Shown piece by piece: positions 1 through 60,875 of a stretch of DNA of 64,000 bases. Origin of the DNA: Chiloscyllium plagiosum. Lineage: Eukaryota. Positions within the stretch are counted from its first letter, which is position 1, and every line of letters begins with the position of its first letter. The notes under the pieces are model-generated. The model did no database searches. It was not told the origin of the DNA and saw nothing but the letters and a program-made list of their open reading frames with translations. The translations under genes and the position numbers were made by a program. The stretch spans positions 91,839,695 through 91,903,694 of the forward strand of contig NC_057720.1 in NCBI RefSeq assembly GCF_004010195.1, written 5' to 3'.

Positions 1-352
1 TAGTTAAAATGGTCAATTAAAGTGTCAGTATTCATTTTATGAAAACTCCATTGTCCTCTTATCTTTGGATTTCAGCTTAATGCAGCAGTACAAGTTCACA
101 GGGTTCAATTACTATTCTCAGCCATTTTGTTGTATTATTTCAAATTGAAAAGCCATTTGTGGTTAGTAAAAATCGACATATACTTGTTGCTTCAAATTTT
201 AGATCCTCAAGGTCAGCTTCATAGATAAGGCCAAGATTGTAAAGAGAGTCTGATACTAAATAAAAGCTAAAAAAAAACCGTGGGTGTTGTAAATGAGGAA
301 CAAAAACAGAAATTGCTGGAAAAGCTCAGCAGGTGTGGCACCATGAACTGTT

Positions 353-385
353 CTGAGGAAGGGTCACTTGACCTGAAAAGTTAAC
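353..385 (+). ncRNA. Decayed hammerhead motif in a short fold-back element (about 300-437)
   Basis: CUGAGGA-A-GGGUC(ACUU)GACCU-GAAAAGUUA, flanked by inverted arms. Confidence 0.5.
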
Positions 386-784
386 TCTGACCTTTTCCCC
401 AGATGCAGCCAGACCTGCTGAGGTAATCTGTTTTTGTAAAGAGTCTGGTTGAGCAGCAGACAGTGCTCAGGGAGAGGGATAGAGTTTGTACTGGGAGCTG
501 AAAAGGATGGCTTGGATCTTCCCAACGTGTTTCCCAGCGAGCCTGGCTCCTCAGTCCTGACTGCTCTTAGCTGCTGTGATTGTCACTGATTGGACACTTA
601 TTATTAGAGATTCTGACCACAGCAGAAAGCCACAGTGCAAAAAATAACTGCAAAGACTGTCAGATCACAAGGTTGAAACTTCACCATCAGAGGAAGTGAA
701 AGAAGGAGCTCGGAGCAGCTGGACGTTTGTTACTGAGACGGGAGAAAACTGTGAACGGTCTGCACTCCCTGGAATCTGACAGCA

Positions 785-1065
785 CATAAGAACATAAGGG
801 CTAGGAGCAGGAGTAGGCTATCTGGCCCCTCGAGCCTGCTCCAACATTCAGTAAGATCATGGCTGATCTTTTCCTGACCTCAGCTCCCCCTATCCGCCCC
901 CTCACCATAACCCTTAATTCCTTTACTGTTTATAAAATTGCCTGTCTTAGCTTTGAAAACATTTACTGAGGAACCACTTTGCTGGGCAGGCAATTCCATA
1001 GATTCACCACCCTCTGGGTGAAGATGTTCCTTCACAATTCAATCCTAAATCTGCTCCCCCAGTAC
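785..1065 (-). mobile_element. CR1-type LINE 3' end
   Basis: ACATAAGAACATAAG tail and reverse-complement CR1 3' motifs (..FTQRVVNLWNCLP.. type). Confidence 0.7.
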
Positions 1066-2309
1066 AGGGGGAGGCCATTCAGCCCATCGTGTCTGTGAGT
1101 GATCCAATTAGTCCCACTGCCCCTCTCTCTCTCATCATATTGCAACAAATTTTCCCTTTTCAGCTCGATCTCCTGTTGCCTGTTGTAGACCTGGTCTACA
1201 GCAGAGACTGCCCCTAACCTGGGTTCCAAATTGGTATCTCATTCATTCATTGGGAGACAAGCTGCCTGGGCTGGGAAATGGAGCTCAGGACCCTGAACAT
1301 TCCCTCTCCCCTCCTGTGGGACACTTGATGCTGAGGGGTTAGTTAAATGGAGCCCTACAATATATCCCTACCATGCACACCTCCCCATTCTGTGTGTAAA
1401 ACGCTGGAGCCTGCCAGCAGGATATTCAACTGCAGGAGCCATCATCAGTTTGACCAATTCTGACCACCCCAATTCTCCGTAACATTCCAACTCATTACTA
1501 ATATCAAATCTGGCCATCTCCTCCTTGGTGTGAGATAGGGAATGGGCCACTCCATTTCAGATAATTTGGAATTTATGGAACATTGATGGAAGAAGCTGGG
1601 GGAGGTCATCAGAATCATGGAGTTTGGAGATGGGATGAACAGGAATAAGGGTTTCTATGGTCAGTGGGCTGATGTAGTGCAGACACAAACAATGTTGTGG
1701 AGATTGAAATAAGAGACCAATGTGATGGAGAGGATGTGGGGTTTGAAGCTCCAATACTGGAGGGTCCAGTGGGAAAGAAATTCAGGCTTATTGCTGTCCA
1801 TTGGACATTCCAGTGGGATGGAGGCCCATGTTTACTGATCTCTGTTAGAGCTTCCAATTGATTTCAATGAAATTGGAATGTTGGCATTTCTTGCAGCAAT
1901 GGGAATCTTGGTATTTATTATAAAAGGACTGGATTACAGAAATAAAGAAATATTGTTACAATTCTGCGAGGCATTGGTGAGACCTCATCTGAAGCATTGT
2001 GTCCAATTGTGGTCTCCTTACTTGGTGAAGGATATGGTGGTACAGGATGCAGTTCAGAGGATGTTCACCAGACTGATTACCGGGATGAAAGGGCTGTGAT
2101 ATGAGGAATGGTTGAATAGCTTGGGCTTATACTCACTAGAATTCAGTCACATGAGGGGAGATCTGAGTGAGGTATATAAAATACTTAAGGGGATTGATAA
2201 GGCAGACATGAAACAGATGTTCCCTCTTGTGGGCCAGTCTCAAACAATAGGTCATAGATATAGACTGAGAGAGGTAGGATCAAAACTGAGATGAGGAGAA
2301 ATTGTACGT

Positions 2310-4793: not shown

Positions 4794-4979
4794 GTACAAA
4801 TCTCTCTCCTTCCACCTTGAATCTTTAGCTGCTCTCCATTTCACTCCAATTCCACTGACTTGTGATAGAAGGAAAAATGCTGAAACCAGAGGAATGTTCA
4901 GTGTCTCCAACAACCTTTCATTTGACAGGCTCTTTCTGTGACAGTTCTGATTTCACTGTGTTTCTCTCTGACCCCTCAG

Positions 4980-5281
4980 GTATCAGTGGGGACATCATCA
5001 TGACCCAGTCTCCCCCGGTGCTGTCAGTGGGACTGGGCCAGACTGCAACCGTCACCTGTAAATCCAGTCAGAGTGCCAGTGGTGATGTTGAATGGTACCA
5101 GCAGCGAGAAGGTCAGAAACCCTCTCTCCTGATCCACGATGCAGTAGCACGATACACAGGAGTCTCCAAGAGATTCACCGGGACAGAAGTGTCCAGCACA
5201 CACTTCACCCTGACAATCAGCAACGTTCAGAATGAGGATGTCGCTGATTATTACTGTATGCAGAGTGAGAGCTGGCCTTGG
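4980..5281 (+). CDS. IGKV: Ig kappa (NS4-like) V exon, germline and unrearranged, open frame
   Basis: (G)ISG-DIIMTQSPPVLSVGLGQTATVTC...WYQQREGQKPSLLI...FTLTISNVQNEDVADYYC-MQSESWPW. Both Cys, the Trp and the DxAxYYC motif are present; the framework matches what I recall of shark kappa/NS4 V regions. Confidence 0.95.
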
Positions 5282-5309
5282 CACAGTGATGCAGAGTCGT
5301 ACAAAAATC
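5282..5309 (+). other. 12-bp-spacer recombination signal sequence of the V
   Basis: CACAGTG (5282-5288) + ATGCAGAGTCGT (12 nt) + ACAAAAATC (5301-5309). A V with a 12-RSS is the kappa configuration. Confidence 0.97.
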
Positions 5310-8689: not shown

Positions 8690-10260
8690 TAGAAACACAG
8701 AAACATAGAAAATAGGTGCAGGAAGAGGCCATTTATCCCTTAGAGCCTGCATCACCGTTCAATATGACCATGACTGATTATGCAATCTCAGTATCCCATT
8801 CCCACTCTCCCCCCATATCCCTTGATCCTTTTAGCTGCAAGTGCCATATTCCTCTTGAATATATCGAACAAACTGGCTCCACCAGTTTTCTGTGGCAGAG
8901 AATTCCACAGGTTCATAACATCTGAATAACTTAACCCTTATTCGTGATCTTTGACCCTGAGTTTTGGATTTCCCTAATATTGGGAACATTCTTCCAGCAT
9001 CAAGCCTGTCAAATCCCATCAGGATTTTACATGTTTCTATGAGATTCCCCTCATTCTTCTAAATTCCAGTGAGGACAAGCCCAGTTGATCCAGTCTTTCC
9101 TCATATGTCAGTCCTGCGTCCCGGGAATCAGTCTGGAGAACCTTCGCTGGACTCCCTCAATAGCAAGAATGTCCTTCCTCAGACTAGGAGACTAAACCTG
9201 CACACAATACTCAAGGTGAGGCCTCACCAAGGCCCTGTTTAATTCTGCAAGACATCCTTACTCCAATACACAAATCCTCTCACTGTGAAGGCCAACATGC
9301 CATTAACTTTCCTCACTGCCTGCTGCACCTGCATGCCACCTTTCAGTGACTGTTCCACCATGACACCCAGCTCTCATTGCACCTCACCTTTTCCTAAACT
9401 TCCACCATTCATTAATAATCTGACTTTTGTTTTACCACCAAAGTGGATAGTCTCACATTTACCCACATTATATTGCATTTGCTAAGTATTTGTCCAGTCA
9501 GCCAGCCTGCCCAAGTCACCCTGTAGCCTCTTAACATCCTCCTCACAGCACACATTACCACCCAGCTGAGTGTCATCTGCAAGTTTGGAGGGATTACATT
9601 GAATTCCTTTGTCCATATCATTTATGTATATTGTGAACAGCTGGGGTCCCAGCACTGAACCCTGCGGTACCCCACTCATCACTGCCTGCCATTTATTCCA
9701 ACTCTCTGCTTTCTATCTGCCAACGAGTTCTCTCTCCATGTCAATACATTAGCTCCAATACCATGAGGTTTAATTTTGCTCACTAATCTCTTGTAAGGGA
9801 TCTTGTCAAAAGCCTTTTGAAAGTCCAGTCACACAACATCCACTGAGTTCTGAGGGAGGGTCACTCAATCTGAAATGTTAACTTCGCTTGCTCTCCACAG
9901 ATGCTGCCACACCTGCTGAACGTTTTCATCAATTTTTGTTTTTATTGTCCACTGATTCAGCCTTGTCCACTCTCTACTGATCACATCCTTCAAAACCTTC
10001 CAGAAGATGTGTCAGGCCTGATTTCCCTTTAGTATATCCATGCTGACTTAGACCTATCCTGTCATTGCTTTCCAAATGCTTGGTTATTGTATCTTTAATA
10101 ACTGACTCCAGTGTTTTCCTCATGTATAATTCCTCATTTTCACTCTCCCTCCTTTTATTAAAAAGTGGAGTTATATTGGACACTGTCCAGTCCATTGGAA
10201 CTCTGTCAAAGTCTACAGAATGCTGGAAAATGGTCACTAATGTGTCCACAATTTCTACAA
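8690..10260 (-). mobile_element. Degenerate CR1-type LINE (RT region and 3' end)
   Basis: [20 protein letters not shown] and KLADDTQLGG on the minus strand; AGAAACATAGAAA tail. Confidence 0.88.
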
Positions 10261-10709
10261 TAACAGTTTTTCTGGTACTGTTATTCAAGTCTTTTCTTCT
10301 TGGAGTTACAAAGCCTTACATCTTTACCACATTTACGCTAAAGTCACTTTATAACACGCTCTAATTCACAATAACAGGAGCCATTCTGAAGCCGTCAGGG
10401 AAAGGACTCTGAGTTGCAGAGCATCAGACCCTGGGGAATTACAAATTTTGATACCGTCAGTCTCCACAATACCACATCCCAACTTATAAGGATTATCTTC
10501 AGTTCCTCCTTCACACTTGACCCTCTATCCCCTTGCATTTCCTTTCAATAGGATGTGCATCCCTGGATATTTAGTTCCCAGCCCTGATCCCCTTGCAGCC
10601 ACGTCCCTGCACTACAGGCTCATTTACCTTGTTTCATATACTCAGTGCATCTAAGTACAACACCCTCAGTCATGCACTGACTGCCTCCTTCTCATAGTTA
10701 TCTCCGTCA

Positions 10710-10950
10710 GAAATCATAGAAACCCTACAGTGTTGAAGCAGGCCATTCAGCCCTCCAAAAAGTATCCCACCCACCCTTCAATTCCCATAGATAATCCTCC
10801 TAACCTACACTTCTTTGTGACAATGGGAGGAAACCCAAGTAGACACGGGGAGAATGTGTAAACTCCACACAGACAGTCAGTTGGAATTGAGTCTGTGTCT
10901 CCAGAGCTGTGAGACAGCAGTGCTAACCACTGATCCACCATTCCACCCTG
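10710..10950 (-). mobile_element. HE1-type SINE, degenerate (paralog about 26300-26550)
   Basis: Reverse-complement HE1 head (CTGTGAGACAGCAGTGCTAACCACTG) and tail. Confidence 0.75.
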
Positions 10951-12257
10951 CTAGGCATCAAGTTCAATTCCTGATCTTTTCCATACTCTCCATCCTATTA
11001 CATGTTCTGGATGCTTTCACAAATTCTCATGAGCCCCTATCTTCCTTATTTACCTTGGTTTGTGTGGTACCACTTTGTCTACTTTATTCCAAATGGTTCG
11101 TGCGTTAAAAGACAAAGCTTTTACGTTTGTTCTATTGTTGAGCTTCCCTGCACTTTTATGTTTCCTTCGTACAATATGACATTCACAATATTCTGTCCTT
11201 TCCTTTTATTTTCTGGTAACAATCAATCCCATCACTAACCAGCAATCCTCCCTTCTCCTTTGCCATCCATTTTCTCATTTTCCATCCAACTGTTCCAGTT
11301 ATTTTCTCTTTGAATCATATTCAGGCTGATATTTATCCCTGAACAAACATCACTCAAAATGTTCCTTGGTTCATGGTTGCTTGTGGGATCTTGCTGTGTA
11401 CAATCTGGCTTCCACGTTTCCTGCATTCCTTCAGTGACCATATTTCAAACAAGTCCCACACTGTCTGCAAATGGCTTGGAGACAGCATGAATCTTTCTTT
11501 TCTTTGGATGAACTGGGAGTCTTTCAGATGTGAAAGATGCCGTTCCAATATTGCACAGTCCTCCTTCTGAACTACAGTTTCTGTTTTGTCCCTCTCTTTT
11601 GTGAAAATAGATGGAAAGTTTTCATGAGGAACCATTGCTCCATCTTGCACCACCGCACACAAGTTCCCTTCCTGCTCTCGAATGGGCCTCCTACATTCCT
11701 TCATTCTCTTCTTGTTCTTTCTGTGGTTATAAACATCACTGGGATTTCCTTCACTTCATTTGGACACATTTCATCCTGTCAGCTCTTTGCTTTCCTCAGG
11801 TCCGGGTTAATTTCACCCCTGCATTTTGTTTTTCAGCCCAGTTTTACCAAGTCACTGCCCAGGTCAGTAAAATGGTTTGTTCCCAAATGAAAACTTTTAC
11901 ACTTGCCCCATAGTTCTCCATTTCCATCCCTCCTCTCAATCTCACTGAGTTCTGATCACTGTCTCTGAAATGCTCCCCCATTGAGAGCCCTTCCAGCTGC
12001 TCACATTCATTCCCTAAACGATGGTCTAACACTGTCCCTTCTCTTTCACCATCACCTTCTCAGGGGCAATTAGGGATGGGCAATAATGGCCAGTGACACC
12101 CACATCCCAAGAAGCAATTTGAACAATGCCTGTTCTTTTATGGGATTTGATAGGTATTGGATATAAATGTTTAAAATGGATTGTTTTGCCAGTTCATGTT
12201 CAGAGAGTTGAAATCCTTTTGAATGGCAGAGATTAAAATTGTTTCTCTTGTCTTCAG

Positions 12258-12586
12258 GCCGTGAGAACTCTCAGCCCAAGCTGACCCTGCTGCCCCCCTC
12301 CCCGGAGCAGGTCAATGCCAAGGGCACTGCCACCCTGGTGTGCCTTGCCAATCACTTCGATCCTGATGAGCTGGAGGTGGAGTGGAAGAAGGATGGTGCA
12401 GTCATTTCGGATGGGGTTCAGACCAGTAACTACCTGCGAGCTTCGGACAGCACCTACAGTGTCAGCAGCCTGCTGACCCTCTCCGGGTCTGACTGGGAGT
12501 CCAACACTCGCTTCTCCTGTGCCCTCACCCACGTGACCCTCCCCTCTCCCCTCAGCAAGAGCATCAGGAGATCAGAATGTGTGTAG
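12258..12586 (+). CDS. IGKC: Ig kappa (NS4-like) constant exon, copy C1
   Basis: Acceptor TTGTCTTCAG ends at 12257; phase-1 exon of 329 nt, RENSQPKLTLLPPS...ATLVCLANHFDP...WKKDG...FSCALTH...KSIRRSECV-TAG, with C1-set Cys/Trp and the penultimate Cys. Confidence 0.95.
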
Positions 12587-13110
12587 AGTGTTTGAGACAG
12601 TCCACAGAGGAGACACAACTTTAAATAGAACAGGGTTGAGCTGGCAGGGCAAAGGTCATTGTCAGCACTGAATTTCAACTCTCTTCCTTCTTGGGACTGG
12701 CTCAGAGACACTTCTGAGGTTCAGGGGTTAAGGCAGGTCATTGGGACAGTGTAAAGGAGATTTAATTTGTATCTAACCCCGTACTACCCCTGTTCTGGGA
12801 GTGTTTGTTGGGGACAGCGTTGACTTGTGATGTCAAGTAAAACTCCTCGATACTGAAGACTGTCAGCTGTACAAAATCAACGTGAACCTCAGAAGTCTCT
12901 GCTTCACTAAACCAGATCTCCTTCCTGCTCAGCTGCCAGTTCCAATTTCAGGTTCTGTCACTGTTTAAAGGGACAGGATTCTTTTTTTTTTGAGAAAATC
13001 TTCACAAGTGTTGTGCCTCAAGCTCCATTGTGGCTGTGAATTTGAGCAGCTTCCTCTGTCTGGGCTGTTAATTGCAGTCTGTTTTCTGTCAATGTCAATC
13101 TGGAAAAGGG

Positions 13111-13116
13111 AATAAA
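13111..13116 (+). terminator. Probable polyadenylation signal of C1
   Basis: AATAAA about 525 nt after the stop, followed by a T/GT-rich tract. It is conserved at the equivalent site in other copies (21487-21492, 28712-28717, and 46596-46601 on the minus strand). Confidence 0.65.
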
Positions 13117-13620
13117 GATGAAGAAGATTCAGTTTCTGTCTCTGAGTGCTTTGTATATAGACTGCTCCAGCCTCAGCTGATTGGCTACGTTTCAGCAAAT
13201 GGTTATCATGGTTGGCTCTTTGGATGGTCAATCAATGACACATCAGCTAAAGACTGGATTTGAGCCAATCTTCAATCATTTTCAAGAGATCCCTTCGATC
13301 TGGAATCTGTCAAGTTGACAAGATTCGAAACAGAACAGAAACTGAAATCTGCTGGGGCCCAATCATTCCAATCTGAGGCATTCCCTCTTCACTCTGTTGG
13401 TCCAGACCCAGCTGGTGGGATCGCACTGAGCCCACTGTGCTGCTGCTGAGTCACATTTCAAATGAGCTGGGGCCAATCACAGACACTGGAGGCTTCAGTC
13501 ATTACATTCATTTCTCCCACCTTAGCCTTTTCCTCACAGTGACAGCTCAAAGCTGAACTGAGTGACAACTTAGCTCAGAAAGAGGATCAGTCAGAATCTT
13601 ACATCATACATGACTGTCAG

Positions 13621-13770
13621 TAGGTGTGTGTCCCTGAGTGTGGGTGTGACTGTTACCCAGTTAATGTCTGTAGGTGAGTGTCCCTGAGTGTGGGTGTGAC
13701 TATTACCCAGTTAATGTCTGTAGGTGTGTGTCCCTGAGTGTGGGTGTGACTGTTACCCAGTTAATGTCTG
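13621..13770 (+). repeat. 50-bp minisatellite, 3 units
   Basis: Unit TAGGTGTGTGTCCCTGAGTGTGGGTGTGACTGTTACCCAGTTAATGTCTG at 13621, 13671 and 13721. Confidence 0.95.
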
Positions 13771-13798
13771 TGGATTTGTGTCTCAGCTTTCCTGCATT

Positions 13799-15990
13799 TC
13801 ATAGAGTCTCAGAATCATAGAGATGGACAGCATGGAAACAGACCCTTCGGTCCAACTCACCCATATCGACCAGATGTATGAAACTAATGTAGACCCATTT
13901 GCCAGCACTCGGCCTATATCCCTCCAAACCCTTCCTATTCATACACCCATCCAAATATCCTTTAAATGTTGTAACTGTACCAAACTGCACCACTTCCTCT
14001 GGCAGCTCATTCCATACATGAACCACTCTCTGTGTGAAAAAGTTGCCCCATAAGTCCCTTTCAAATCTTCCCCCTCTCACCCTAAACCTATGCCCTCTAG
14101 TTCTGGACTCCCCCCCCCCAAAAGGGAAAACGCCTTGTCTTTTTACCCTATCCGTGGGGCTCATGGTTTTATAAACCTCTATAAGGTCACCCCTCAGCCT
14201 CCGACATTCCAGGGAAAACAACCCTAGCCTGTTCAGTCTCACCCCATTGCTTAACAAAAACAGCAACACTGGTAACATTCTTGTCAATCTTTTCTGACCC
14301 CTTTCAAGATTCACAACTTCTTTCCGATAGGAGGGAGACCAGATTTACACACAACTTTCCAAATGTGGCCAAACCAATGTCCTGTGCATCCACAACCTGA
14401 CCTCCCAACACTTGTATTAAATTCTGACTGATAATGGAAAGCATACCAAATGCCTTATTCACTATCTTTTCAACCTGTGACTCTAATTTCAAGGAACTAT
14501 GAACCTGCACTCCAAGGTCTTTTCGTTCAGCAACACTCCCCAGTACCTTACCATTAAGGCACGGTGGCTCAGTGCCTCAGTGATTAACACTGCTGCCTCA
14601 CAGTGCCAGAGCTCTGGTTCAGTTCCAGCCTCGGGTGACTGTCCGTGCGGAATTTGTACATTCTCCATGTGTCTGCGTGGGTTACCGCCCATAGTCCAAA
14701 GATGTGCAGTTTGGGGAATTAGACATGCTGAATTGTCAAATGTTCAGGCATATATACGTTAGGTTCATTAGTCAGGGTTAAATGTAAAGGACCAGGGTAG
14801 GGGAACGGATCTAGATGGGTTACTCTTCAGAGGGTCGGTGTGGACTTGTTGGGCCAAATGGCCTGATTCCTTACTGTAGTAATTCCATGATTAAGCATCT
14901 AAATCCTGGCCTGATTTGACTTTCCAAAATACAGCAACTCGCATTTATCTAAATTAAACTCCATCTGCCACTCATCGGCCATTGTGCTCTGCGGTAACCT
15001 TCCTCACTGCCACTACATCTCCAATTTGGTGTCATCTGCAAACTTACTAACTATACCTCCTATGTTCACATCTAAATCATTATGTCAATGACAAAAAGCA
15101 GTGGACCGAGCACTGATCCTTGTGGCACACCACTGATCACAGGCCTCCAGTCTGAAAAGTAGCCCTCCTCTATCACTCTCTGTCTTCTACCTGCAAGCCA
15201 TTTCTATATCCAAGTAGCTAGTTCTCCCTGTATTCCATGTGATCTAACCTTGCAAACCAATCCACCACAAGGAAACTTGTTGAATGCCTCACTGAAGTCC
15301 ATACAGATCATGTCCACTGCTCTGACATCATCAATTGTCTTTGTTACTTCTTCAAAAAACTCAATCAGGTTAGTGAGTCATGATTTCCCAGGTACAAAGC
15401 CATGTTGACTATCCTGAATCAGTCCTTGTCTTTCCAAATACATGTAAATCCTGTCCCTCAGGACTCCCTCCAACTATTTGTCCACCAACTATGTCAGGCT
15501 CACCAGTTCCTGGTTTTTCCTTACCACATTAGCTAAACTCCGGTCTTTCAGCACCTCACCTGTGACCATCGATGATATAAATATTTCAGCAAGTGGCCCA
15601 GCAATCACTTCCCTAGCTTCCCACAGAGTTCTGGGGTGCACCTGATCAGGTCCCAGTGATTTATCTATTTTTATGCATTTTAAGACATACTGCACTTCCT
15701 CCTCTTTAATATGGACATTTTTCAAGATGTCACCATCTATTTCTCCAAATTCTCTATCTGCTGTGTCTTTCTCCACAGTAAACATTGACGCAAAGTACTT
15801 GTTTAGTATCTGCCCCATCTCCTGCAGTTCCACACATAAGCTGCCTTGCTGGTCTTTGAGGGGTCCTATTCTGTTAATTATTACTCTTTTGTCCTTAATG
15901 CATTTATAAACTCCCTTTGGATTCTCCTTAGCCCAATTAAGCAAAGCTATCTCATGTTCCCTTTTTGCCATCCTGATTTCCCTCTGAAGT
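13799..15990 (-). mobile_element. CR1-type LINE, 5'-truncated (paralog about 29450-31508)
   Basis: RRLRGDLIEVYK, FFTQRVVHVWNELP and KSLGPDQVHPRTL. Confidence 0.9.
14558..14890 (+). mobile_element. HE1-type SINE inserted in CR1 (paralog about 30090-30425)
   Basis: GGCACGGTGGCTCAGTG head; flanked by an ATTAAG direct repeat. Confidence 0.85.
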
Positions 15991-17510
15991 AGGAGGAGTT
16001 AGCAATTCTGGAAAGTGTGAAAATATTTAAGTCCCCTGAGCCGGATGGGATTTATCCAAGGATTCTCTGGAAAGTGAGGGATGAGATTGCCGAGGCTTTG
16101 GCATTGATCTTTATGTCATCATTGTTGACAGGAACAGTGCCAGAATACTGGAGGAGTACAAATGTAGTCCCCTTGTTCACGAAGGGGAGTAGAGACAACC
16201 CTGGTAATTATATACCAGTAAGCCTTACTTCGGTTGTGGGTAAAGTGTTGGAAAAGATTAGAAGAGATAGAATTTATAATCATCTAGAAATGAATAAGTT
16301 GACTAGGGATAGTCAACACGGTAGATTGGGCCTCACAAACCTTATTGAATTCTTTGAGAAGGTGACCAAACAGGTGCATGAGGGTAAAACCGTTGATGTG
16401 GTGCATATGCACTTCAGTAAGGCATTTGATAAGGTTCTCCACAAAATACCGAGGCATGGCATTAAGGGTGATTTAGCGGTTGGGATCTGAAGTTGGCTAG
16501 CTGAAAGAAGACAGAGTGTGGTTGTTGATAGATAATGTTTATCCTGGAGTTCAGTTACTCTTTTGGGGTCACTGCTGTTGCCATTTTTATAAATGACCTG
16601 AATGAGGGCATAGAAGGATGACTTAGTAAATTTGCAGATGACACTGAGGTTTGTGGAGTTGTGGATTTTGCTGAAGGATATTACAGCCTACACAGGGACA
16701 TGGATAAGCTGCAGAGCTGGGTTGAGAGGTGGCAAATGCAGAGTTTAATGCAGAAAAGTGTGAGGTGATTCACTTTGGAAGGAGCAAGAGGAATAAAGAG
16801 CACTGGGCTAATGGTAAGAATCTTAGTAGTGGAGATGAGCAGAGAGATCTCGGTGTTCATGTCCACAGATCCTTGAAAGTTACCACCCAGTTTGATAGGG
16901 TGGTTAAAAAGGCTTTTGGTGGGTTAGCTTTTATTGGTAGAGAGATTGGGTTTAGGAGTCATGAGGTCATGCTGCAGCTGTACAAATCTCTGGCGTGGCC
17001 GCAATTGGAGTATTGCAAATAGTTGTGGTCACCGCATTAAAAAAAGGATGTGGGAACTTAAGGGTTCAGAGGAAATATACTAGGATGTTGTCTGGCAGGG
17101 CGGGAAGGCCGTCTGAGGAAAGGATGAGGGACTTGTGGCAGTTTTTGTTACAGAGAAGAAGCTTGAGAGTTGTCTTAATTGAGACGTACTAAGATAATCA
17201 CAAGGTTAGATAGGGTGGACAGTGAGAGCCTTTTTCCTCAGATGTTATGGGGACATAGGTTTAAATTGAGGGGTGATAGATATAGGAGAGATGTCAGAAG
17301 TAGTTTATTTACTCAGAGACGAGTAGGGGCATGGAATGCACAGTCTGCAACAGTAGCAGACTCGCCAACACTAAGGGCATTTAAATGGTCACAGGATACA
17401 CATATGGATGAAAATGGTATAGTGTGGGATAGATGGGCTTTAGATTGGTTCCATAGGTCGGCACAACATCGAGGGCTGAAGGGCCTGTACTGCACTGTCA
17501 TGTTCTATGT
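15991..17510 (+). mobile_element. CR1-type LINE, 5'-truncated, head-to-head with the previous one (paralog about 31509-33055)
   Basis: KSPEPDGIYPRIL, PGNYIPVSLTSVVGK, FSKAFDKV; TTCTATG tail. Confidence 0.9.
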
Positions 17511-17617
17511 TTTATCTTCTCGATCTGACATTGCTCACCACCGCCCTCTCCAGGACAATTAGGGAAGGACAACAAATAGCAGACAAATCAAAGCTTGCCC
17601 CATCCCAGGGGCCATTC

Positions 17618-17646
17618 CTGAAGAAGGGCTCATGCCCGAAATGTCG
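17618..17646 (+). ncRNA. Minimal hammerhead motif in a short element (about 17612-17745)
   Basis: CUGAAGA-A-GGGC(UCAU)GCCC-GAAAUGUC. The paralog at about 33158 has CUGA changed to CCAA. Confidence 0.6.
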
Positions 17647-24197: not shown

Positions 24198-24201
24198 ATA
24201 A

Positions 24202-40791: not shown

Positions 40792-43249
40792 CTGCCTCAT
40801 TGTCCCTGAACAGGAAAATGTAAAGAGCAGCTCTGCTTGAAGCTAACGGGCTCAATCTATAGAGACACATAGAGTGTACTGCTTTAGAAGCAGGGCACTT
40901 ATCGCACCACAATGAAAATATCCCCTGTGATAAGAAAAGTACTTTGATGTGACTTTTGTTTGTCTTCACAGTGTGCTGCTTTGTTCATTCTGTTAAACAT
41001 GTCGACAAGGCCAGTACTGAGTGGCACAAAGTATATTTCCTCCTCTAAACCCTTTCCAAAACACCCTCTCCATCTTTCTTTACTCTCTATTGACTCTTCT
41101 ACAATTGTCCCTGTTCCCTCACTACGTCACGGTCCCAGAGGAATTAATGGCTGGAGTTCATGACCCCACATTGTGTGAAGGTTGGTGTGAAGTGAGGCCA
41201 GTGTTTTGGAGCTTGGGCTCCTGCTTCAGGCCCAGGTGTAGGGGCCTGTTCAACAATCTGCACATTGTCCTTTTTCTCTTTCTGACCGTACTGGAGTTTT
41301 CATGCTGCAGTAACTTGCTGGCAACAAGGTGTCTTGTCTAAAATGATCGCAGCATTGGACAGATCTCTGCTGTTGATTTTTTTCTCTCTCTCTCAGGAGC
41401 CTGCTCTGTATTCAGTGCCTGTTATCATTAGTTTGTTGGAGTTCATATGTCAGCTGCTGCTTCTTTGCTATGATACTGAAAAAAAATCATCAATGCCTCT
41501 TGAGATTTAAATACTCCTTCTTCATGGAAGTGGTTGGCAGACTTTTTAACATCATTTAACAAACTAATGATGTGAATGCATCAGTGTTGTTTATGGCTGG
41601 GAGCATTTAACATCATGGTCCTAGTTTTTAATGGATCCTCACTCATGATGATACAGTTTGCAATGTTTCTCTCCCCTTTTCTGTTATTAAGAAGCTTGCA
41701 AATGTGTTATGATGAGGACAATGCAACTTCAACACCATTTGACAGAGTGGGTGGCTGTTTGAATTCTCATATAATTATCATCCAGCTTTCAAAGAAAATG
41801 CTGTAGTCTCTGAAATTAGATTGTACTCAGGTTTTATGCATATTGTGTTTGTATTTTATTTTTGGAATGCCAATTTGTCATAAAAATATCCTGTTCAGTT
41901 TTGTAGCTCAGTGGTTGTGTTTGTTCCCTGAGATACTGAGAGTTTACACAACACACCATTTGCCTGTGACCTAGTTGTTCGCTGAAGCCATTGCCTTGCT
42001 CTCTGCAGTTATACCATCAACTTGGTGTCTCAGTGTGAGCCAGGAGGCCGCTGCATGATGACTTCCTGTTCCACTGTCGGTGTAAAGGCAAGTGGGAACT
42101 GTCGAGGTTAATCCCATCATGAACAACAGAACATTATATTCAGCTGGAACTACCTCCACTGACTAATTTCTTTGGCCGCCATTGCACTAAAAGCAAATCC
42201 CTCCCTTTGCCAGCACAAAGAGAAAGTGCCCGTCAGATTCCCTTGTGTGTGATGGATTAGCCCAATAGGAGCAGCGCTGGTAGCTCATGTATCAGCCTGG
42301 ACAGAATCCTGAACAAACTCCAAATGAAAGCACGTCCTTCAGTAGATCTGCTGCTACACAAAATATGGAATTGGAATCCTTGTTCCCAAATCACCTCGTC
42401 AAACCTAAATACAATTGAAAAAATATAAACCAAACCCATTTCCCAAGGACATGTGTCACAACAAGAAAGTGGGGAGCAGACAATTACTGTTCGCCTGTCT
42501 CTGGGGAGCGTCGCTTTTCCTGTCTCCTCTCTCTTTGTGGGATATCATTTTTACCATCCTTTCTGTCTGAGAATATTACTGTTCCTGTCCCCACTCTCTT
42601 GGAGACAGGGTGGGGGTGTCACACCCACCCAGTTTGTTCGTCCCAATTACTCTCGCGAGATGTGTAATCCCTGCTTCACTATGTGTGTGAGCCATGTGTG
42701 AAAGCCCAGCACAGCTAACCCTTCACTTCAATCAGATCACAGGGTCTGAGGTTGGTCCGTACTATCTGGACCCAGACAAAAGCACTGACTGACTGGATCA
42801 CGATCAAGATAACCCAGATCAAGTCCCAATGAGATTGCTGTTGACCTTCTCCCTCAAAGTCCACTGAGGAGGTGGTCATTAATCCCAGTGTTGTCACAGA
42901 TTAAGTTCTCCCAGAGATTCATGATTCATTCTAGATTTTACATTAGGGTGTGATGTTGTCAGGTGACAGCTGGGAAGACATGAGGATAAAATATAAAAGG
43001 AGAGAGGATTATATATGTGTTATACATTCCTTGAACTTCGTATGTTTGGAAATGGTTTGCAGCCAATGGAATACTTCCAAAGTCCAGACATTGTTGTAAT
43101 GTGGAAACTGTGACAGCCTGGGCAAGGCAGATCTTTTGGCAGCACCACCCAGAGACTGGAGGCTGCTACTGCAAGCAGGCTTCAAACCAGCTCTGCTGTG
43201 AGGGGAGGACACTGGAGCACACAAGGACATGGGAAATAGGAGCAGGAGG

Positions 43250-44467
43250 AAGCCTCCAATTGGAAATGGAGAGGTAAAGAAAGAGCAGGGAGGTGTCTGA
43301 GATGGATGAAGTGAAGTTGAGGACAGGGTGGAAGTTGTGGGGAAAGTGAATGAACTGCTCCAGTTCAGCCTGGGTGCAGGATGCTGCACCGATGTAGTCA
43401 CTGATATAATGGCAAAAGAGTTGGGGCACAGTGCCTGTATAGTTGCTGAAGAGGGACTGGTTGACATAACTCAACTGGGTGCCCATCACTACTCCCTGGA
43501 CCAGTTTGGCTAGACGGAGGAGTGTATTGGTGGAGGGGGACTGGATGGGTCTGTTGCAGAGGAAAAGGTGTTGGGCCTGGAGGCTATCCTTGTGGACATA
43601 TATAAGGACTGCACATCCATAGTGGAGATAAGGCACTTAGGGCTGGGAAACTGGAGGTTACTGAAGAGATGGAGGGCATGGTTGGTGTAGCGGATGTAGG
43701 TGGGCAATGTCTGAACCAAGGAGGAAAGTTGAGGTAGGATGAGAGGATTTGGGTGGGGCAGGAGCATGCTGAGACGATGGATCAGCTGGATAGTTGGGCT
43801 TGTGGATCTTGGGGAGCAGGTAGAATTGGGCAATGCAGGGCTGGGGGACTATGAGATTGGAGACAGTGGAGGGGAGATCACTGGAGGCAATGGGGGCACT
43901 GACAGTGTGAGTGATTTTGGCCTGAGGGGTCATGGCGGGGTTATGGGCAAGGGGGAAGTAGGCCGTGGTATCTGAGAATTGGCGTTTGGCCTCTGTGACA
44001 TTTAGGTTTGTTCCCCAGACTAACACCACCCCACCTTTGTCAGCGGGTTGGATGGTGAACCAGGGGTTGGCGCAGAGAGAGTGGAGTGCTCGATCGGAGG
44101 GGGTGTGGTTGGAGAGGGTGAGGGGAGAAATTGAGGCGGCTGATGGCACATCAACAGTCAGCAATGAAGAGGTCTCGGGTGTGTACACAGCTGATGGTGG
44201 GGGGGTAACCAAATAGAGGAGGAAGATTGGAGGTGGGAGTAGAAGTCCTCAGAGGGAGGTTGGGAGTTTTTGTTAAAGAAGTAGACACAGAAGTCAAGGC
44301 AGCGGTAGAAGAGCTCCACGTCATGGCGGGTGTGGGACTTTTTGAGATGGGTTCGGACGAGAATGACCATAAGCCCTTTCCTGAGGATAGACATTTGGCC
44401 TCAGAGAGTTTGAGGTTGGGGGGATAGTAAATATGGGGCAAGGCACAGGGGTGAGGTTTTCGGGGTG
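43250..44467 (-). mobile_element. Penelope-like (Neptune-type) RT remnant
   Basis: IQPADKGGVVLV, FYLLPKIHKP, TMDVQSLY, GVVMGT, YISDYIG and FHPVLNFT motifs across frames. Confidence 0.8.
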
Positions 44468-45969
44468 NNNNNNNNNNNNNNNNNNNNNNNNNNNNNNNNN
44501 NNNNNNNNNNNNNNNNNNNNNNNNNNNNNNNNNNNNNNNNNNNNNNNNNNNNNNNNNNNNNNNNNNNNNNNNNNNNNNNNNNNNNNNNNNNNNNNNNNNN
44601 NNNNNNNNNNNNNNNNNNNNNNNNNNNNNNNNNNNNNNNNNNNNNNNNNNNNNNNNNNNNNNNNNNNNNNNNNNNNNNNNNNNNNNNNNNNNNNNNNNNN
44701 NNNNNNNNNNNNNNNNNNNNNNNNNNNNNNNNNNNNNNNNNNNNNNNNNNNNNNNNNNNNNNNNNNNNNNNNNNNNNNNNNNNNNNNNNNNNNNNNNNNN
44801 NNNNNNNNNNNNNNNNNNNNNNNNNNNNNNNNNNNNNNNNNNNNNNNNNNNNNNNNNNNNNNNNNNNNNNNNNNNNNNNNNNNNNNNNNNNNNNNNNNNN
44901 NNNNNNNNNNNNNNNNNNNNNNNNNNNNNNNNNNNNNNNNNTAGGGATTCTATGACAGTCCATTCCAGATTCCCACCAACCACTGAGTGAAAACAGTCTT
45001 CCCCAAATCTCATTTGCGGTGTCCATGATGAAATCTTTCAAACCATTCATTTTGTCTAGTGTCGTTTAGCTCTTGACCTCCTTGTTCAATAAATGCTTTA
45101 TTCTTTTTGATAAAATATGAGTTCTCAGACAGGGACAGGTAACTTTGTCCAATCAGGGAGTCCTGGCTGACAGATAAAAAGGGGAGTGTCAAAAGGACTG
45201 ATACTCTGGAACCTGACTCTGAATAACAACCTGCCAACCAACCCCCTCCTGCTGTCACCGTCCCCAAGGGGCTTACTCTTGATCCCTCTTCGATCCAGCC
45301 TGTGCTGCCTTTGGGAAAGGTTGGCCTTTCGTTAATCACCCAGGAATGTGGTCATCATCCCAGAGCAGTCACACTTTTAACCTGAGGGGATCCCAGCTGG
45401 GGCGGGGGAGAGAAGGTGGCACCTTCATGGTGGTCATACCTGTCATTAATCCACTGCAACCTCTCTTGGGGCTGCAAGAGTTCAACCTCCCTCCCTCAGA
45501 CAGCTCCCCTCCCTGGAAGGTAATATTGCTGCATCTAGTTTTGGGTTAATTAACCAGTGAAATATGACTATGGGGAGCCAGCATTGGCTGTGACCCTGGA
45601 TCCAGAAAATCCCCTCGGAATTCGGCAACACATTCGGGAGCACAGTGCCCACTGCCTCTGAAATCCCTCCCTTACTGAGAATACACTCTCAGTATTCACA
45701 TTTTTCAGCTGCCATCTGAATTTACTATAAATTCTGTGTCCAATGATCCTGCCCCTCCAGATGAAGGAACAGCACTCCGAAAGCTTCTACTTCCAAATAA
45801 ACCTGTTTGACTATAACCTGATGTTGTGTGATTTTTAACTTTGGCCATCTGAATGAGCTGCCATTCAGACTGAATCAGCTGAACTGTTTTTCATTCATGA
45901 TTTGAGAATATAAAAGCCTCATCTTCAATCCCCAGCACAAAGTCCGTTCTCAATCCATTGTTTGGAGAC

Positions 45970-47880
45970 ATAGACCTCAGAGAGACACCTCCAGGCAGCA
46001 CAGAGTAACATACTCGCACTGAGAGAGACACCTACAGGCTGCACGAAGTAACACACGCACTCTGACAGACAGGCCGCACTGAGTAACATGGTCACACTCC
46101 ATGCTGAGGATCGGTCTCTCCGAATGTGCGTGTGTTACTCGGTGTTGCCTGTAGGTGTCTCTCTGAGTAACACGCCCACACTCAGAGAGACACCTACAGG
46201 CAGTATTAAGTTAAACACACACTCAGAAAGGCGCTCAGCCAACAATGTCTGTGAATGGCCGAAGATTGTTTAAGCAGCTACCCAACATGCAGCAGAGATT
46301 GCACAGTTCGATCCCATCAGCTGGGCCAGGACCAACAGAGTAAAGAGGGAATGCGTCAGATGTACTTATTAAGTCCTAACAGCTTTCAGTTTCTGTTCTT
46401 TTTGGAATCTTCTAACCTGCATAAGTTCCAGATCAAAGGGATCATTTGAAAATGAGTAATGATTGATAATTGTAATTGATTGACAAGCCAACCAACCAAT
46501 CTTGACAATGACCTGCTGAAATGCAGCCAATCATCTGAGGGGTGGGGAGGTGGTCTACTTTCAAAGCACACAGAGACAGAGACTGAATCTTCATCTTTAT
46601 TCCCCTTACCAAATTGACATTGACAGAAAAGAACTGCAATTAACAGCCCAGACAGAGGAAGCTGCTCAAATTCACGGCCACAATGGAGCTTGAGAAAAAC
46701 ACTTGTGGAGATTTGCTCAATAACAGGATAATCCTGTCGCTTTAAACAGTGACAAAACCTTAAATTAGAACTGGTGGCTGAGCAGGAAGAAGATCTGGTT
46801 TACTGAAGCAGAGAATTCTGAGGTTCACATTGTTTTGTACAGCTGACAGTCTTCAGCAACTTCAAGAGATTTTACTTGGCATCACAAGTCAACATTATCC
46901 CCATCAAACACTCCCAGGAGGAGGACAGCATGGGGTTTGACATAGCGTAAAGCTGTCTCGACACTGTCGCAATGACTTGCTTTAACATCCAAACCTCAGA
47001 AGGTTTTCGGAGCAGTCCTGAGAAGGAAGAGAGTTGAAATTCAGTGCCGACAATGACTTGAATTCCTGCCAGCTCAGCCCTGTTCTATTTAAAGTTGTGT
47101 CTCCTCTGTGGACTGCCTCAAACACTCTACACACAATCTGATCTCCTGATGCTCTTGCTGAGGGGAGAGGGGAGGGTCACGTGGGTGAGGGCACAGGAGA
47201 AGCAAGCGTTGGACTCCCAGTCAGACCCAGAGAGGGTCAGCAGGCTGCTGACACTGTAGGTGCTGTCCGAAGCTCGCAGGTAGTTGCTGGTCTGAATGCC
47301 GTCTGAAATGACTGCACCGTCCTTCTTCCACTGCACCTCCAGCTCATCGGGATAGAAGTGATTAGCAAGGCACACCAGGGTGGCAGTGTCCTTGGCATTG
47401 ACCTGCTCCGGGGAGGGGGGCAGCAGGGTCAGTTTGGGCTGAGAGTTCTCACGGCCTGAAAGACAAGAGAAACAATTTTAATCCCTGCCACTCGAAGGGA
47501 ATTCAACCCTCACAATATTCACTGACAAAACAATCTTTTACAACATTTTTAGTCAATACAGAATAAACTCGACAAAATGACAGGCATTGTTCACATTGCT
47601 TCTTGGGATGTGAGTGTCACTGGCAGGGTCAGCATTTATTATCCAACCCTAATTGTCCCTGAGAAGGAGTTGGTGAAGCAGCAGAGAGAGAAGGAACAGT
47701 TTTGGACCATCGTTTATGGAATGAATGTGGGCAGCTGGAAAGGCTATCAATGGGGGAGCATTTCAGTGACAGTGATCAGAACTCAGTGAGATTGAGAGTA
47801 GGGATGGAAATGGCGAACCATGAAGCAAGTGTAAAAGTTTTCATTTTACTAAACTGTACAGTGTTTTGGTAAAAGTGGAT
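45970..47880 (-). repeat. Older inverted paralog of the C region and its flanks
   Basis: The reverse complement aligns by eye to about 11840-13770 (intron end, C exon, 3' UTR, downstream flank, minisatellite-related motifs), with more diverged flanks. Confidence 0.85.
47127..47455 (-). CDS. IGKC: Ig kappa (NS4-like) constant exon, copy C3 (inverted)
   Basis: Minus-strand acceptor TTGTCTTTCAG (AG at 47457-47456); 329-nt intact exon RENSQPKL...NAKDTATLVC...ESNACFSC...KSIRRSDCV*. Confidence 0.95.
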
Positions 47881-56630: not shown

Positions 56631-57544
56631 CCCAGCATCAGTTTAAGGTCAGAGGAGAAAGAATAAATGGGAACCTGAGGGGCAACCTTTTTACACAGAG
56701 GGTGGTATACATATGGAATGAGCTGCCAGTGGAAGTAATTGAGGTGGGTACATTAACAACATTTAAAAGGCATTTGGACAAATACATGGATAGGAAAGGA
56801 TAAGAAAGATTTGGGAGTAAGTGGGGACTGCAAATGCTGGAGATCAGAGTCAAAAAGTGTGGCACTGGAAAAGCAGAGCAGGTCAGGCAGCATCCGAGGA
56901 GCAGGAGAGTAGATGTTTTGGGCATAAGCCTAATTTGGGCAAAGTACAAGGAAATGGGGTTAGCGTGGGTGGACATTTTGGTAAACATGGACCAATTTGG
57001 GCCAAAGTGTCTCTGTGCTGTAGCACTCTATGACTGTATGTGACCATTGACTTCTGCAGCTGTGTGACACCTGTCCTTGGCACATGTAATTTTGCACAAG
57101 TACAGTCCGTGAGCACTTTAATATGTACAGTTTTCCCAACAAAGAGATATCTTTTTACACACTTCCACGAGAGGAAACATCTACATACACAATTGCAATC
57201 ACATGCCAATTGCTAATTCTGAATCATCTGCCTGCCTATTTAAATGTGTTTTTCAAAATAAAGTGTTTATTTATTTCGACTAAAAATGCTACTGCAGGCT
57301 ATAAATATTCACATTCTCTCCAGGTGTTAGAATTCTGGCGTTTTACTGACTTCCTTAGTGACCTGATTGAACAAAGTATCCTAATGTTGCCTGTCCTTTA
57401 AAAATCGTAAGAATACAGGTTAAAAATGTGTAGAATTCTTTTAAACTGTGAGCTGACATGGGGGCACATCTTTACAGGGTGGAGACAGTGTTTGTGGAGC
57501 TGGGAACTGAGCCTTGATTTTCACTGCTGTTTTGTTCTCCGCAG

Positions 57545-57619: not shown

Positions 57620-59702
57620 GTAAGTACATTGTTGTGCGTCAGAGAATTTCATGTCACCACATACGTTATGGCAGTCAGGACTTCTGACCTTCATCCACCC
57701 CTTGTGGCAATCACTTTCTGTGCACGTAGCTGGGCAGTAAACCAGTTAATGAGATTAATGAGGAAGAGCCAGGTTGGGTTTTGCAATGGTCCTGCGGCTT
57801 ACACTATCACCTCCAGTAAGCGTCACGGGAGAAGGTACTTGGCAGTTATCAGGTGGCTGTCTGCCACAGGAACAGAAGAAACTCACGTGAAGGACCTCAA
57901 CCTGGCAGTGAGATGCTATTCCTCAGGCTGTTGAAGCCAGGTAGGAGGTGAGCCCTTAGAGTTGGTAGCCTCCCCCCCTCCCCCTTCCCCCAACCATCAA
58001 GTTCCAGATTCTCAATCCCAAGCTGCTGCACATGAGCAGACTGTGATCCCCTACCCCTTGACTTTAGTTGGAAATATTGCTCCATGTGTACCACACTAAC
58101 AAGAGGTTCTGGTACTTCAGAAAAACCTTCTCAGAAGGTTGGAACTTGAAATGAGTACGGGTTTTAAGAAGGAAGCAAGAGGCTGGCAGCAAAGGCAGCT
58201 CCATTAACCGTGACACACGATACAGGAGCACAATAGGCTAATCTGGCTGTCAAATCCACTCCCTCAGTCACTGAGATCATGGCTGTCCTGATAATCTTCA
58301 ACTCCACTTTTCTTGCCTTTTCCTGTAACCCCTGATTCCCTTACTCTTTCAAACTCTGTCCATCTCATCCTCGGATACACTTAATGACCCTCCTTGACAT
58401 CCTTCTGTGGTAAAGGATTCCGCAGATTGACTGCCCTCAGCCGATAAGAATTTCTGAGCTGCAGTCGCTGTTTTAAGATTGAGGACTGAGGCAGTCAATT
58501 TGTGCGCAGCAAGCTCCGACAAACAGAAATGTGATGACAACTAGGTCATATGTTTCAGTGATGTGGATCCAGAGCTAAATGTAAATTGTTCGGGGCACCT
58601 GGGATGCCATGGGTCTGTTTGCGTACCCTGGGAGGCAGACCGATGTTCATGTCTGATGGTGGGGAGCTCATTTCACAGAATCACAAAGTTGTTACACTGT
58701 AGATGGAAGCTGTTCAGCCCATCATATATCCACTAACAAACTGAATGCGCATCATTACTTACTGCCATTCTCCTGCCTTTTCCAAAAATCCTGCACTTAA
58801 CTAAATTATCATCTATTGCCCTCTTGAATGCCTTAATTGAACCTGCCTGCACCAGGTCGGGAGCTCCAAAACCAAATCGCTCACAATGTGCTTCATTTGT
58901 AAGTTACCTTATATTTTCACCCTCTGTTCTCACTTCTTTTATGGGAGGGAACCTTTTCTCCCAATCTACTCCATCCAGCCACCTCTTGATTCTGAAAACT
59001 ACTATTAACTCTGCTCTCAGCACTTTTCTCTCCGTGGAAAACAGTCCCATAGTCTCCAATAGTCTGATGCCCAGAACGGCACAGTACTGCAGCTGAAGTC
59101 TATCTGGTGTCTTGTGATGGTTCAGACTAGCTTCCTTTCTGTTGTACTCTTTGTCCCTATTATTGAAGCCTAGGATAGTGTATGCTTTATTAATTGTATT
59201 ATTAATTATTAATTGAAGCACTGGCATACCTGTCTTGTCACCTTTAATGACTGAGGCAGATATCCACCCAGGTCACTGTGCCCTGCATAGTTAGGATAGT
59301 GCCCATTATTAAGAGTCTTTCTCCATATTCTTTCCATGAAAGTGCTGTTTACTATGCTTCCATATTTCGTATCTTCCACTAATTTGGAAATTGTCCCCTG
59401 CACATCAAGAAGTTGCTAGTCAGTGAAGGTAAACAGATCGGTCTCTAACTGCTGGATTTCTCCTTACAAATTCTTTTCGAGCAAGGGCACAATGTTTTCA
59501 ATTCTCTAGTTCTCCATCAGTGCCTCTGTGATTTCCACCCTTCAATATTAATGGCAAGGTCCTGGGGAGTGTTGCTGAGCAAAGAGTGAGGGTTCATAGC
59601 TCCTTGAAAGTAGAGTCACAGGTAGATAGGATCGTGAAGAAGGCGTTTGGTATGCTTTCCTTTGGATGTAAGTTTGCTAACTAGCTGGAAGGTTCTTTTT
59701 CA

Positions 59703-59736
59703 GATGTTTCATCACTATACTAGGTAACATCATCAG
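59703..59736 (-). ncRNA. Minimal hammerhead motif, slightly decayed (same type as the Penelope termini)
   Basis: The minus strand reads CUGAUGA-U-GUUAC(CUAGUAUA)GUGAU-GAAACAUC. Confidence 0.6.
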
Positions 59737-59910
59737 TGAGCCTCCGATGGTGTTAGTGACCCACTTTCTATTTATGTGTTTACGTTTCCAAAACTCAAAA
59801 CTCGCTAATGCTTTCCTTTATTGGTCAGAGTATTGAGTACAGGAGTTGGGAGCTGAAAATGTGTTGCTGGAACAGCGCAGCAGGTCAGGCAGCATCCAGG
59901 GAACAGGAGA

Positions 59911-59946
59911 ATCGACGTTTCGGGCATAAGCCCTTCTTCAGGAATC
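59911..59946 (-). ncRNA. Minimal type-I hammerhead ribozyme motif, intact core
   Basis: The minus strand reads GAUUC-CUGAAGA-A-GGGC(UUAU)GCCC-GAAACGUC-GAU: both conserved boxes, a perfect stem II, a palindromic ACGU stem III and a GUC cleavage triplet. Confidence 0.75.
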
Positions 59947-60875
59947 TGCCTGACCTGCTGCGCTGTTCCAGCAACAAATTTTCAGCTCTGATCTCCAGCA
60001 TCTGCAGACCTCACTTTCTCCTACCGGAGTTGGGAGGTCATGTTGCAGCTGTACAGGACATTGGTTAGGCCACTGTTGGAATATTGTGTGCAGTTCTGGT
60101 CTCCTTCCTATCGGAAAGATGTTGTGAAACTTGAAAGAGTTCAGAAAAGATTTACAAGAATGTTGCCAGGGTTGGAGGATTTGAGCTACAGGGAGAGTCT
60201 GAATAGGCTGGGGCTGTTTTCCCTGGAGTGTCGGAGGCTGAGGAGTGCCCTTATAGAGGTGTATTAAATCATGAGGGGTATGGATAGGGTAAATAAAGAA
60301 AATCTTTTCCCTGGGGTGGGTGAGTTCAGAACTAGAGGACATAGGTTTAGGGTGAGGGAAAAATTTAAAAGAGACCTAGGGGACAACCTTTTCATACAGA
60401 GAGTGCGAGTATGGAATGAGCTGCCAGAGGGAGTGGTGGAGGCTGGTACAATTACAGCCTTTAAAAGGCATCTGGATGGGTATATGAATAGAAAGGGTTT
60501 AGAGGGACATGGGCCAAGTGCTGGCAAATGGGACGAGATTAGGTTAGGATATCTGGTTGGTATGGGCGAGTTGGACGGAAGGGTCTGTTTCCATGCTGTA
60601 CATCTCTGTGACTCTATGACTCTAATATTCTTGGATCATTTGTTTCCAGTGCCCTATCACCTTTAAATACCAGTGTCTATCCAATGCCCCTCCTTATCAA
60701 TTTTAAACCTTTCCAATGATTGTGTTTTCTCCTCTGACACCATAGCTTGGTCAGCATCTCCTTCCCTATGAAAGACAGATTCAACTTATTCATTTAATGC
60801 CTCAGCCATGTTCCCTGCCTCCACGTGTAAATCTCATTGGTTGTTCCTAATTGGTCCTACTCTTCCATTTCCTAC

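Follow-up and report, generated by a model that had tools for sequence, protein, structure and literature searches.

Short insertions built around minimal hammerhead ribozymes are scattered over a 64,000-nucleotide stretch of the genome of the shark Chiloscyllium plagiosum (RefSeq assembly GCF_004010195.1, contig NC_057720.1, positions 91,839,695 to 91,903,694 of the forward strand; this whole stretch is called the window, and window positions are counted from its first letter). Here, we describe these loci as very likely the hammerhead-plus-tail termini of several lineages of Penelope-like retroelements (PLEs), and the short ones as probably dead-end run-off copies of the first 95-130 letters of a capped PLE leader RNA. 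More tentatively, it is possible that shark PLEs prime mainly on the 5' leader of the capped RNA, that hundreds of thousands of stubs record the RNA start site, the cap and both priming sites, and that run-off jumps make head-to-tail units, which would supply the first step, so far missing, on the path from Penelope to retrozyme and would likely also explain how the partial-tandem structure of PLEs arises. An earlier reading of the window from its letters alone (the sequence-only reading) had proposed several new non-autonomous families; the ribozymes and elements belong to known kinds, and that framing falls.

In the proposed mechanism, the first A of stem I would be the start site of RNA polymerase II, within an initiator-like motif and about 30 nt downstream of a TATA-like box. 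The PLE protein would make a nick in each DNA strand, the two lying about 14 bp from each other, and reverse transcription would prime inside the RNA at two sites in the tail, by analogy with an anole element studied in vitro. Synthesis primed on the leader copy of the terminal repeat would continue to the capped 5' end of the RNA and run off there, and the cap would sometimes be copied as an additional G. A single primed nick would leave a simple stub, two would leave a head-to-head pair whose tails differ, one being long and the other short, and a jump back into the RNA would give a two-hammerhead unit. Because the stubs retain the uncut 5' part, the hammerhead was apparently mostly uncut before copying, and it would cut only as a dimer or with the help of a protein.

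The loci fall into five families (A to E), and all but E form the termini of endonuclease-bearing PLEs, in agreement with the sequence-only reading, which had seen the motif at the termini of GIY-YIG Penelope copies and had ascribed the insertions to Penelope machinery. They are not the separate non-autonomous families that it had also proposed, since each of these four extends 5' through a ladder of truncated copies into a GIY-YIG-type endonuclease gene. The ladder of family B reaches a GIY-YIG-type frame with a cysteine linker, and a B-type hammerhead ends 15 of 20 reverse transcriptase (RT) loci, which were picked from 171 matches with preference for long frames. For family A, 631 genomic copies match the promoter-side motif, and a same-strand endonuclease lies just upstream in 8 of the 30 copies fetched; for family D, a hammerhead is found at most 900 nt downstream in 25/30 endonuclease loci; and the family C hammerhead comes after RT and endonuclease frames. 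Both domains are thus placed upstream in B and C, and the endonuclease only in A and D, while a parent open reading frame (ORF) was looked for in family E and not found. The names RT and GIY-YIG-type endonuclease are ones that we assume from motifs, a Pfam search of the fragments having named no domain, and the clades (Neptune/Nematis type for A, B and D; Penelope/Poseidon type for C) are assigned by motif only. Very long "open frames" among the RT matches proved to be N gaps, and no intact full-length element was obtained.

Short and long copies were compared in a tree of family B (29 short and 18 long copies; 47 rows, 129 columns, 21/43 branches open), in which the short/long label changes 14 times against a shuffled mean of 14.6, with changes as few as observed in 226/500 shuffles. 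This intermixing removes most of the support for separate non-autonomous families. We regard as quite unlikely the sequence-only reading's view of short elements that propagate themselves, by an internal promoter or as promoter-bearing solo termini mobilised in trans. Their fixed 5' and 3' ends and their target-site duplications (TSDs) are like those of short interspersed elements (SINEs); the promoter of Drosophila virilis Penelope is internal (PMC2377424), so that transcription may still be possible from a stub that begins at the start site; sequences of the pseudo-long terminal repeat (pLTR) suffice for mobilisation in trans in a rotifer (PMC3846280); and one older, poorly resolved B cluster consists mostly of short copies. 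Against self-propagation, the short copies do not cluster in the tree, their nearest neighbours in the young B subfamilies are long copies, the stubs lack the TATA-like box, which lies upstream of them, and the two-hammerhead units share no common breakpoints.

The evidence for run-off lies in where the 5' ends fall. Ends were mapped against panels of long copies, leaving out query-centred matches, immunoglobulin-cluster paralogues, arms without a 3' end and, for B, RT-selected loci, and positions are given relative to C3, the reference base in hammerhead coordinates. Between -12 and +5 lie 71/151 ends of family B, 40/99 of A, 23/57 of D and 1/31 of C. The rate of 5' ends per nt at -10 to 0 is 0.081 in B (0.015 upstream, 0.008 inside; 5.5-fold over upstream), 0.123 in A (0.017 and 0.015; 7-fold) and 0.050 in D (0.018 and 0.008; 2.8-fold). 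In A and B the peak persists without inverted arms, and also in a fixed-position genome sample alone (60 stretches of 10 kb at round-number positions, 574 kb without N, of a 3.56 Gb genome), which is not so in D, and in an overshoot control 130/145 ends fell within 2 nt. A TSD stands directly at the boundary in 8/17 boundary-starting B copies (control 1%) and in only 3/33 older A copies. By eye in the alignments, stem I begins at the boundary, its first base being an A within an initiator-like hexamer, and a TATA-like box about 30 nt upstream of this A is kept though the upstream sequences otherwise diverge. Among reads of a related species, 82 loose ends from many loci fall at the same first A.

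The sequence-only reading had allowed that all copies might be randomly truncated ends of known PLEs; they are very likely PLE termini, and the truncation is not random, given the accumulation of 5' ends at a single site in A, B and D. That the stubs are ordinary 5'-truncated copies of the 3' end, with RT stalling or switching template at the folded hammerhead, is unlikely. Truncation ladders occur in all families, many fold-back joints use stem II microhomology, the 5'-end rate is already raised inside the hammerhead (+1 to +9), and family C fits plain truncation. The peak, however, lies on the far (5') side, at a point reached only once the enzyme has traversed both stems, II and then I, and the rate falls directly behind it (in A, 0 events at -11 to -20); stalling also predicts neither an untemplated G nor jumps into the ORF-start sequence.

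Such a G is seen in front of the first A. In a young, near-identical B subfamily, 7101 exact copies do not have the bases found in the parent at -10 and -16, and in a hand count of the first 100 matches listed the base before the A is G in 42, C (the templated base) in 38, A in 10 and T in 10, an excess of G among the non-C bases with P=5e-12. At fold-back joints, which contain no target DNA and where both templates offer pyrimidines, a hand count of 100 matches listed gave G 26, A 13, T 8 and C 53; without ambiguous rows G exceeds A by 18 to 10 (P=0.01 against genome composition). G also stands at 5/7 head-to-tail joints read by hand. These counts suggest cap copying as the source of the extra G. 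In 9 of the 100 young-B matches listed, AC directly precedes the first A, possibly as a subfamily variant or a second start. TSDs tend to begin with C and end with G.

The leader position is indicated by 3/129 long-tailed B arms that continue into one common sequence. An ORF starts in this sequence, 37 nt behind the tail, and one locus (L391) has a match to RT 1169 nt farther downstream; a terminal repeat both before and after the ORF was found in family B only. There are 28 non-redundant loci with the ORF-start sequence, and in about 22 of them, read by hand, a body segment of 115-425 nt is joined by a second terminal copy; this second copy starts exactly at the A in seven cases and anywhere from -342 to +37 in the rest, and each of the 28 loci has its own pair of breakpoints. 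The head-to-tail two-hammerhead units (L381-L410) measure 245-550 nt with private breakpoints, and a first look across the genome gave 1571 candidates for the ORF-start sequence. These units are retrozyme-like in layout and show no sign of amplification.

Two priming sites are indicated by the 3' ends of family B, which cluster about 90 and 126 nt after C3, and by the inverted B pairs, 55/58 of which combine one long-tailed and one short-tailed arm. TSDs of inverted insertions are 13-16 bp long in 46/57 rows, some insertions being counted from both arms. Same-strand pairs within 1 kb number 20 among 505 arms, and no fixed-unit head-to-tail array was found among these arms (about 1.5 Mb of 3.56 Gb covered). 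Stubs inserted in the tail or terminus of another family, and multi-family clusters within a few kb, were also seen (L010:1313-1500, L123:1498-1559, L242:5650-7930).

That the stubs derive from RNA cut by the ribozyme or from circles, as animal retrozymes do, appears very unlikely. Copies that begin in the 5 nt before the predicted cut site number only 393, compared with 7101 that begin at the 5' edge, a rough ratio obtained with different cores; the stubs hold the whole uncut ribozyme, and the 505 arms include no multimeric arrays. Among 100 cut-site matches listed (hand count), 26 start exactly at the cut and 10, 16, 13, 13 and 22 at -1 to -5, so that exact-cut starts are about twice their equal-rate share (about 13 expected), though some are internal deletions; this two-fold excess, the existence of head-to-tail two-hammerhead units and the proposed origin of retrozymes from PLE termini (10.64898/2026.07.22.740005) speak for cut RNA, and the excess is a weak hint that such RNA is occasionally copied. 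A poly(A) single-cell run of a related species yielded 2069 reads on both strands, 93% of which run on into unlike sequence; one tail-to-head joint occurs in 2 of its reads, and a sister run gave 0 reads.

Several observations weigh against run-off from a capped start. The 5' ends range from about -8 to +5 and do not mark a single base, the ends of roughly a third to a half of copies fall within the hammerhead or tail, no pile-up was found in family C (0/31 ends at -10 to 0), and the D peak without inverted arms is non-significant (P=0.11). Parents absent from the reference panel would mimic ends near -5, and about 3/17 boundary-starting B copies look long by eye, belonging to subfamilies absent from the panel; the promoter motifs, too, were read by eye from alignments. 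As to the extra G, the unambiguous 18:10 at target-free joints reaches only P=0.09 against 1:1, no enrichment was found in a small mixed-age sample (1/34 in unselected B), and much of the extra G lies inside TSDs, whose ends favour G, so target preference may explain part of it. Finally, no peak of RNA starts or ends was found in the one informative single-cell run of the related species.

Much of this has precedent. Minimal hammerheads have been described in the pLTRs of metazoan PLEs, mostly single and ascribed to truncated PLEs (Cervera and De la Pena, 2014; PMC4209133), with the type I core, the extra base before stem II, the G10.1-C11.1 pair and the palindromic 15.2-16.2 found here, and likewise with several families per genome and some close opposite-strand pairs. 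That account gives at most about 9,000 motifs per vertebrate genome and, in the portion at hand, names no shark and no sharp 5' boundary; here there are roughly 600,000 insertions with such a boundary. Endonuclease-bearing PLEs carry an inverted 5' copy and an optional 30-40 bp tail (PMC8557442, PMC3846280), and the shark elements share with them an RT followed by a C-terminal GIY-YIG-type domain (with a cysteine linker in A, B and D), partial tandems, inverted arms, the tail on one arm, TSDs, and TATA and initiator motifs in the terminal repeat; they differ in that most shark insertions are cut down to the terminal 95-130 nt. In vitro, the Anolis Poseidon element PAc starts reverse transcription at two internal sites, nicks and extends both strands, and copies mainly uncut RNA (Frangieh et al., 2024; PMC11167929). 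Its two priming sites match the tail, and its hammerhead lies at the junction of pLTR and ORF, as here; the long ORF starts in stem II in PAc and behind the tail in family B, and run-off stubs or cap copying are not derived in the accessible portion of that study. Family C, which is of PAc's Poseidon type, is the family without a 5' peak. With animal non-LTR retrozymes (PMC7229834, 10.64898/2026.07.22.740005) the short copies share type I hammerheads, the lack of an ORF and a PLE origin; those retrozymes form tandem arrays of one unit with mostly canonical ribozymes and circular RNA, whereas copies here are dispersed singles or head-to-head pairs, and the head-to-tail units have private breakpoints.

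A literature search, with Repbase and Dfam outside its scope, found, among the papers listed, no account of run-off stubs or cap copying and none of a "non-autonomous Penelope". The families may already be listed in Repbase, Dfam or the supplements of PMC4209133 or the 2026 preprint (one chondrichthyan included). The remaining value is mechanistic and concerns how PLEs come by their terminal repeats, inverted arms and tandems, for which the shark genome offers a very large set of insertion footprints. These fit and extend the in vitro study, with probable run-off at the RNA start, two nicks served by two priming sites and jumps giving two-ribozyme units, and the analysis names an exact candidate start base and a young, near-identical subfamily.

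All five families have the CUGAnGA and GAAA boxes in their majority sequence, and stem pairing is structurally conserved, as the sequence-only reading had supposed: compensatory pairs (judged across family majorities, not by R-scape) occur in stem I (pair 1 C-G, U-A, A-U; pair 2 U-A, C-G, A-U) and in stem II (pair 2 G-C, U-A; pair 3 G-C, C-G, A-U; pair 4 U-A, C-G, G-C). Exceptions are a U-U in stem I of main B and a stem II of only 2 bp in E. Stem III is palindromic and loop-less (ACGU in A, B and C, AGCU in D, AAGCUU in E), and the NUH triplet is present, with C, U or A at position 17. The common layout holds for A to D, which have the extra base between positions 9 and 10.1; family E (18740) departs from it, with no extra base, the 2-bp stem II and a 6-nt palindrome. 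Stem II sequences, described earlier as unrelated between families, are not all so, A and B being related lineages by profile cross-matches. Dimer co-folding was rejected as a model of cleavage, as it favoured swapped stems and does not represent the catalytic dimer.

In the window, a hammerhead-like layout lies at or adjoining all 12 coordinates that the sequence-only reading had listed, most of them decayed; only 59941 (minus strand) has a perfect core and palindrome, and the other loci have 1-3 core changes. A strict descriptor (at most 1 mismatch) finds 7 sites against 0-1 in each of 8 dinucleotide shuffles, the reversed control gives no match to the family profiles, and an Rfam scan, which that reading had proposed, returned no hammerhead match up to E=10. 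Four of the motifs (24236, 34270, 59703 and 59911) belong to the minus strand, the core of 24236 starting near 24272 and C3 of the other three lying at 34300-34305, 59736 and 59941. The earlier pairing 17618/33158 is a single insertion copied along with a 15.6-kb segment; that of 18740 with 34270 was mistaken, the partner of 18740 being a decayed copy near 34448 and 34270 the opposite arm of that element. With these corrections the list amounts to ten independent insertions, divided among five families as follows: A (353, 9850), B (17618/33158, 59941 minus), C with a related subfamily (22653, 24236 minus, 25286, 59736 minus), D (45758) and E (18740 and its two-armed duplicate at 34255-34490). 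Stand-alone, ORF-less insertions flanked by TSDs, as earlier described, were found at five loci, with lengths of 100-190 bp and TSDs of 10 bp (353), 8 bp (9850), 10 bp (17618), 11 bp (45758) and 15 bp (59911); at the family E loci and at those of C and its related subfamily a TSD was sought and not found. The features are as follows.

247-433, plus strand: family A insertion with a partial inverted arm, hammerhead and short tail; C3 at 353, stem III palindrome with one change; TSD 237-246 / 434-443.
9846-9947, plus strand: family A stub that starts at the 5' edge of the hammerhead; C3 at 9850, A9 changed; TSD 9839-9846 / 9948-9955.
17610-17740, plus strand: family B stub with hammerhead and long tail; C3 at 17618, core boxes intact, palindrome C-to-T; TSD 17600-17609 / 17741-17750.
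18735-18803, plus strand: decayed hammerhead and tail of family E, an old family; parent ORF not found.
22336-22683, plus strand: 3' end of a Poseidon-type PLE, a decayed endonuclease segment followed by a broken, cut-off hammerhead (from 22653); inverted fragment at 21958-22328.
24201-24801, minus strand: 3' terminus of a PLE of Poseidon type, with an endonuclease frame at 24433-24801 and a hammerhead at 24276-24201 whose GAAA box is broken.
25256-25397, plus strand: family C terminal piece beginning 30 nt before the hammerhead; C3 at 25286, A9 changed; runs into an N gap.
33150-33281, plus strand: segmental-duplication copy of the 17618 stub, with a broken core.
34255-34490, two arms: duplicated family E element; minus arm 34255-34305, plus arm near 34440-34490 without the first box.
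43166-44248, minus strand: broken PLE RT fragment; a B-type hammerhead ends 15/20 chosen genomic relatives.
45722-45843, plus strand: family D insertion with TATA-like box, hammerhead (45758) and short tail; first box hit by a small deletion; TSD 45711-45721 / 45844-45854.
56814-56931, minus strand: additional family B stub, absent from the earlier list, starting inside stem II.
59661-59760, minus strand: hammerhead of a Poseidon-type subfamily; C3 at 59736, palindrome broken.
59853-60021, two arms: family B head-to-head insertion; minus arm with C3 at 59941, first A at 59945 and a short tail end, plus arm with a long tail; TSD 59838-59852 / 60022-60036.

A weak family D profile match (17 bits) at 40647-40699 is possibly a very old stub.

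Across the genome, the fixed-position sample, searched with family profiles built from fetched genomic copies, holds 138 insertions (reversed control 0), of which 104 have a core-bearing arm and 32 are inverted pairs. One core-bearing insertion per 5.5 kb (104 in 574 kb) bears out the density of roughly one per 6 kb estimated earlier from the window. Extrapolated to the whole genome, there are about 0.62-0.64 million insertions, making up 2.8% of bases. The core is intact in 31/108 core-bearing arms of the sample (about 29%), and hammerhead counts in shark genomes, which mostly reflect dead stubs, should be read with this in mind.

The window lies in a duplicated immunoglobulin cluster, with light-chain-type V and C1 exons at 4979-5287 and 12233-12586 and copies of the C exon near 27854 and at 47064-47535; the D, C and RT insertions of the window recur in neighbouring copies of the cluster. 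The segmental duplication of about 15.6 kb joins 10177-23872 and 25898-38620, which are 90-97% identical; part of it recurs a third time, in inverted orientation, at 46237-47846, and a 33-bp tandem repeat is present in both duplicated segments (19881-20345 and 35575-36006). An abundant SINE-like repeat, which we take to resemble the elasmobranch HE1 SINE, lies at 23884-24196, 38883-39195, 10799-10951 and 14559-14883, one copy abutting the tail end of the 24236 Penelope. A minus-strand frame with a CCHC-type zinc-binding region (39780-40475) presumably resembles the end of a Tx1/L1-type long interspersed element, and CR1/L2-type RT fragments are found at 15489-16490 and 31023-32161.

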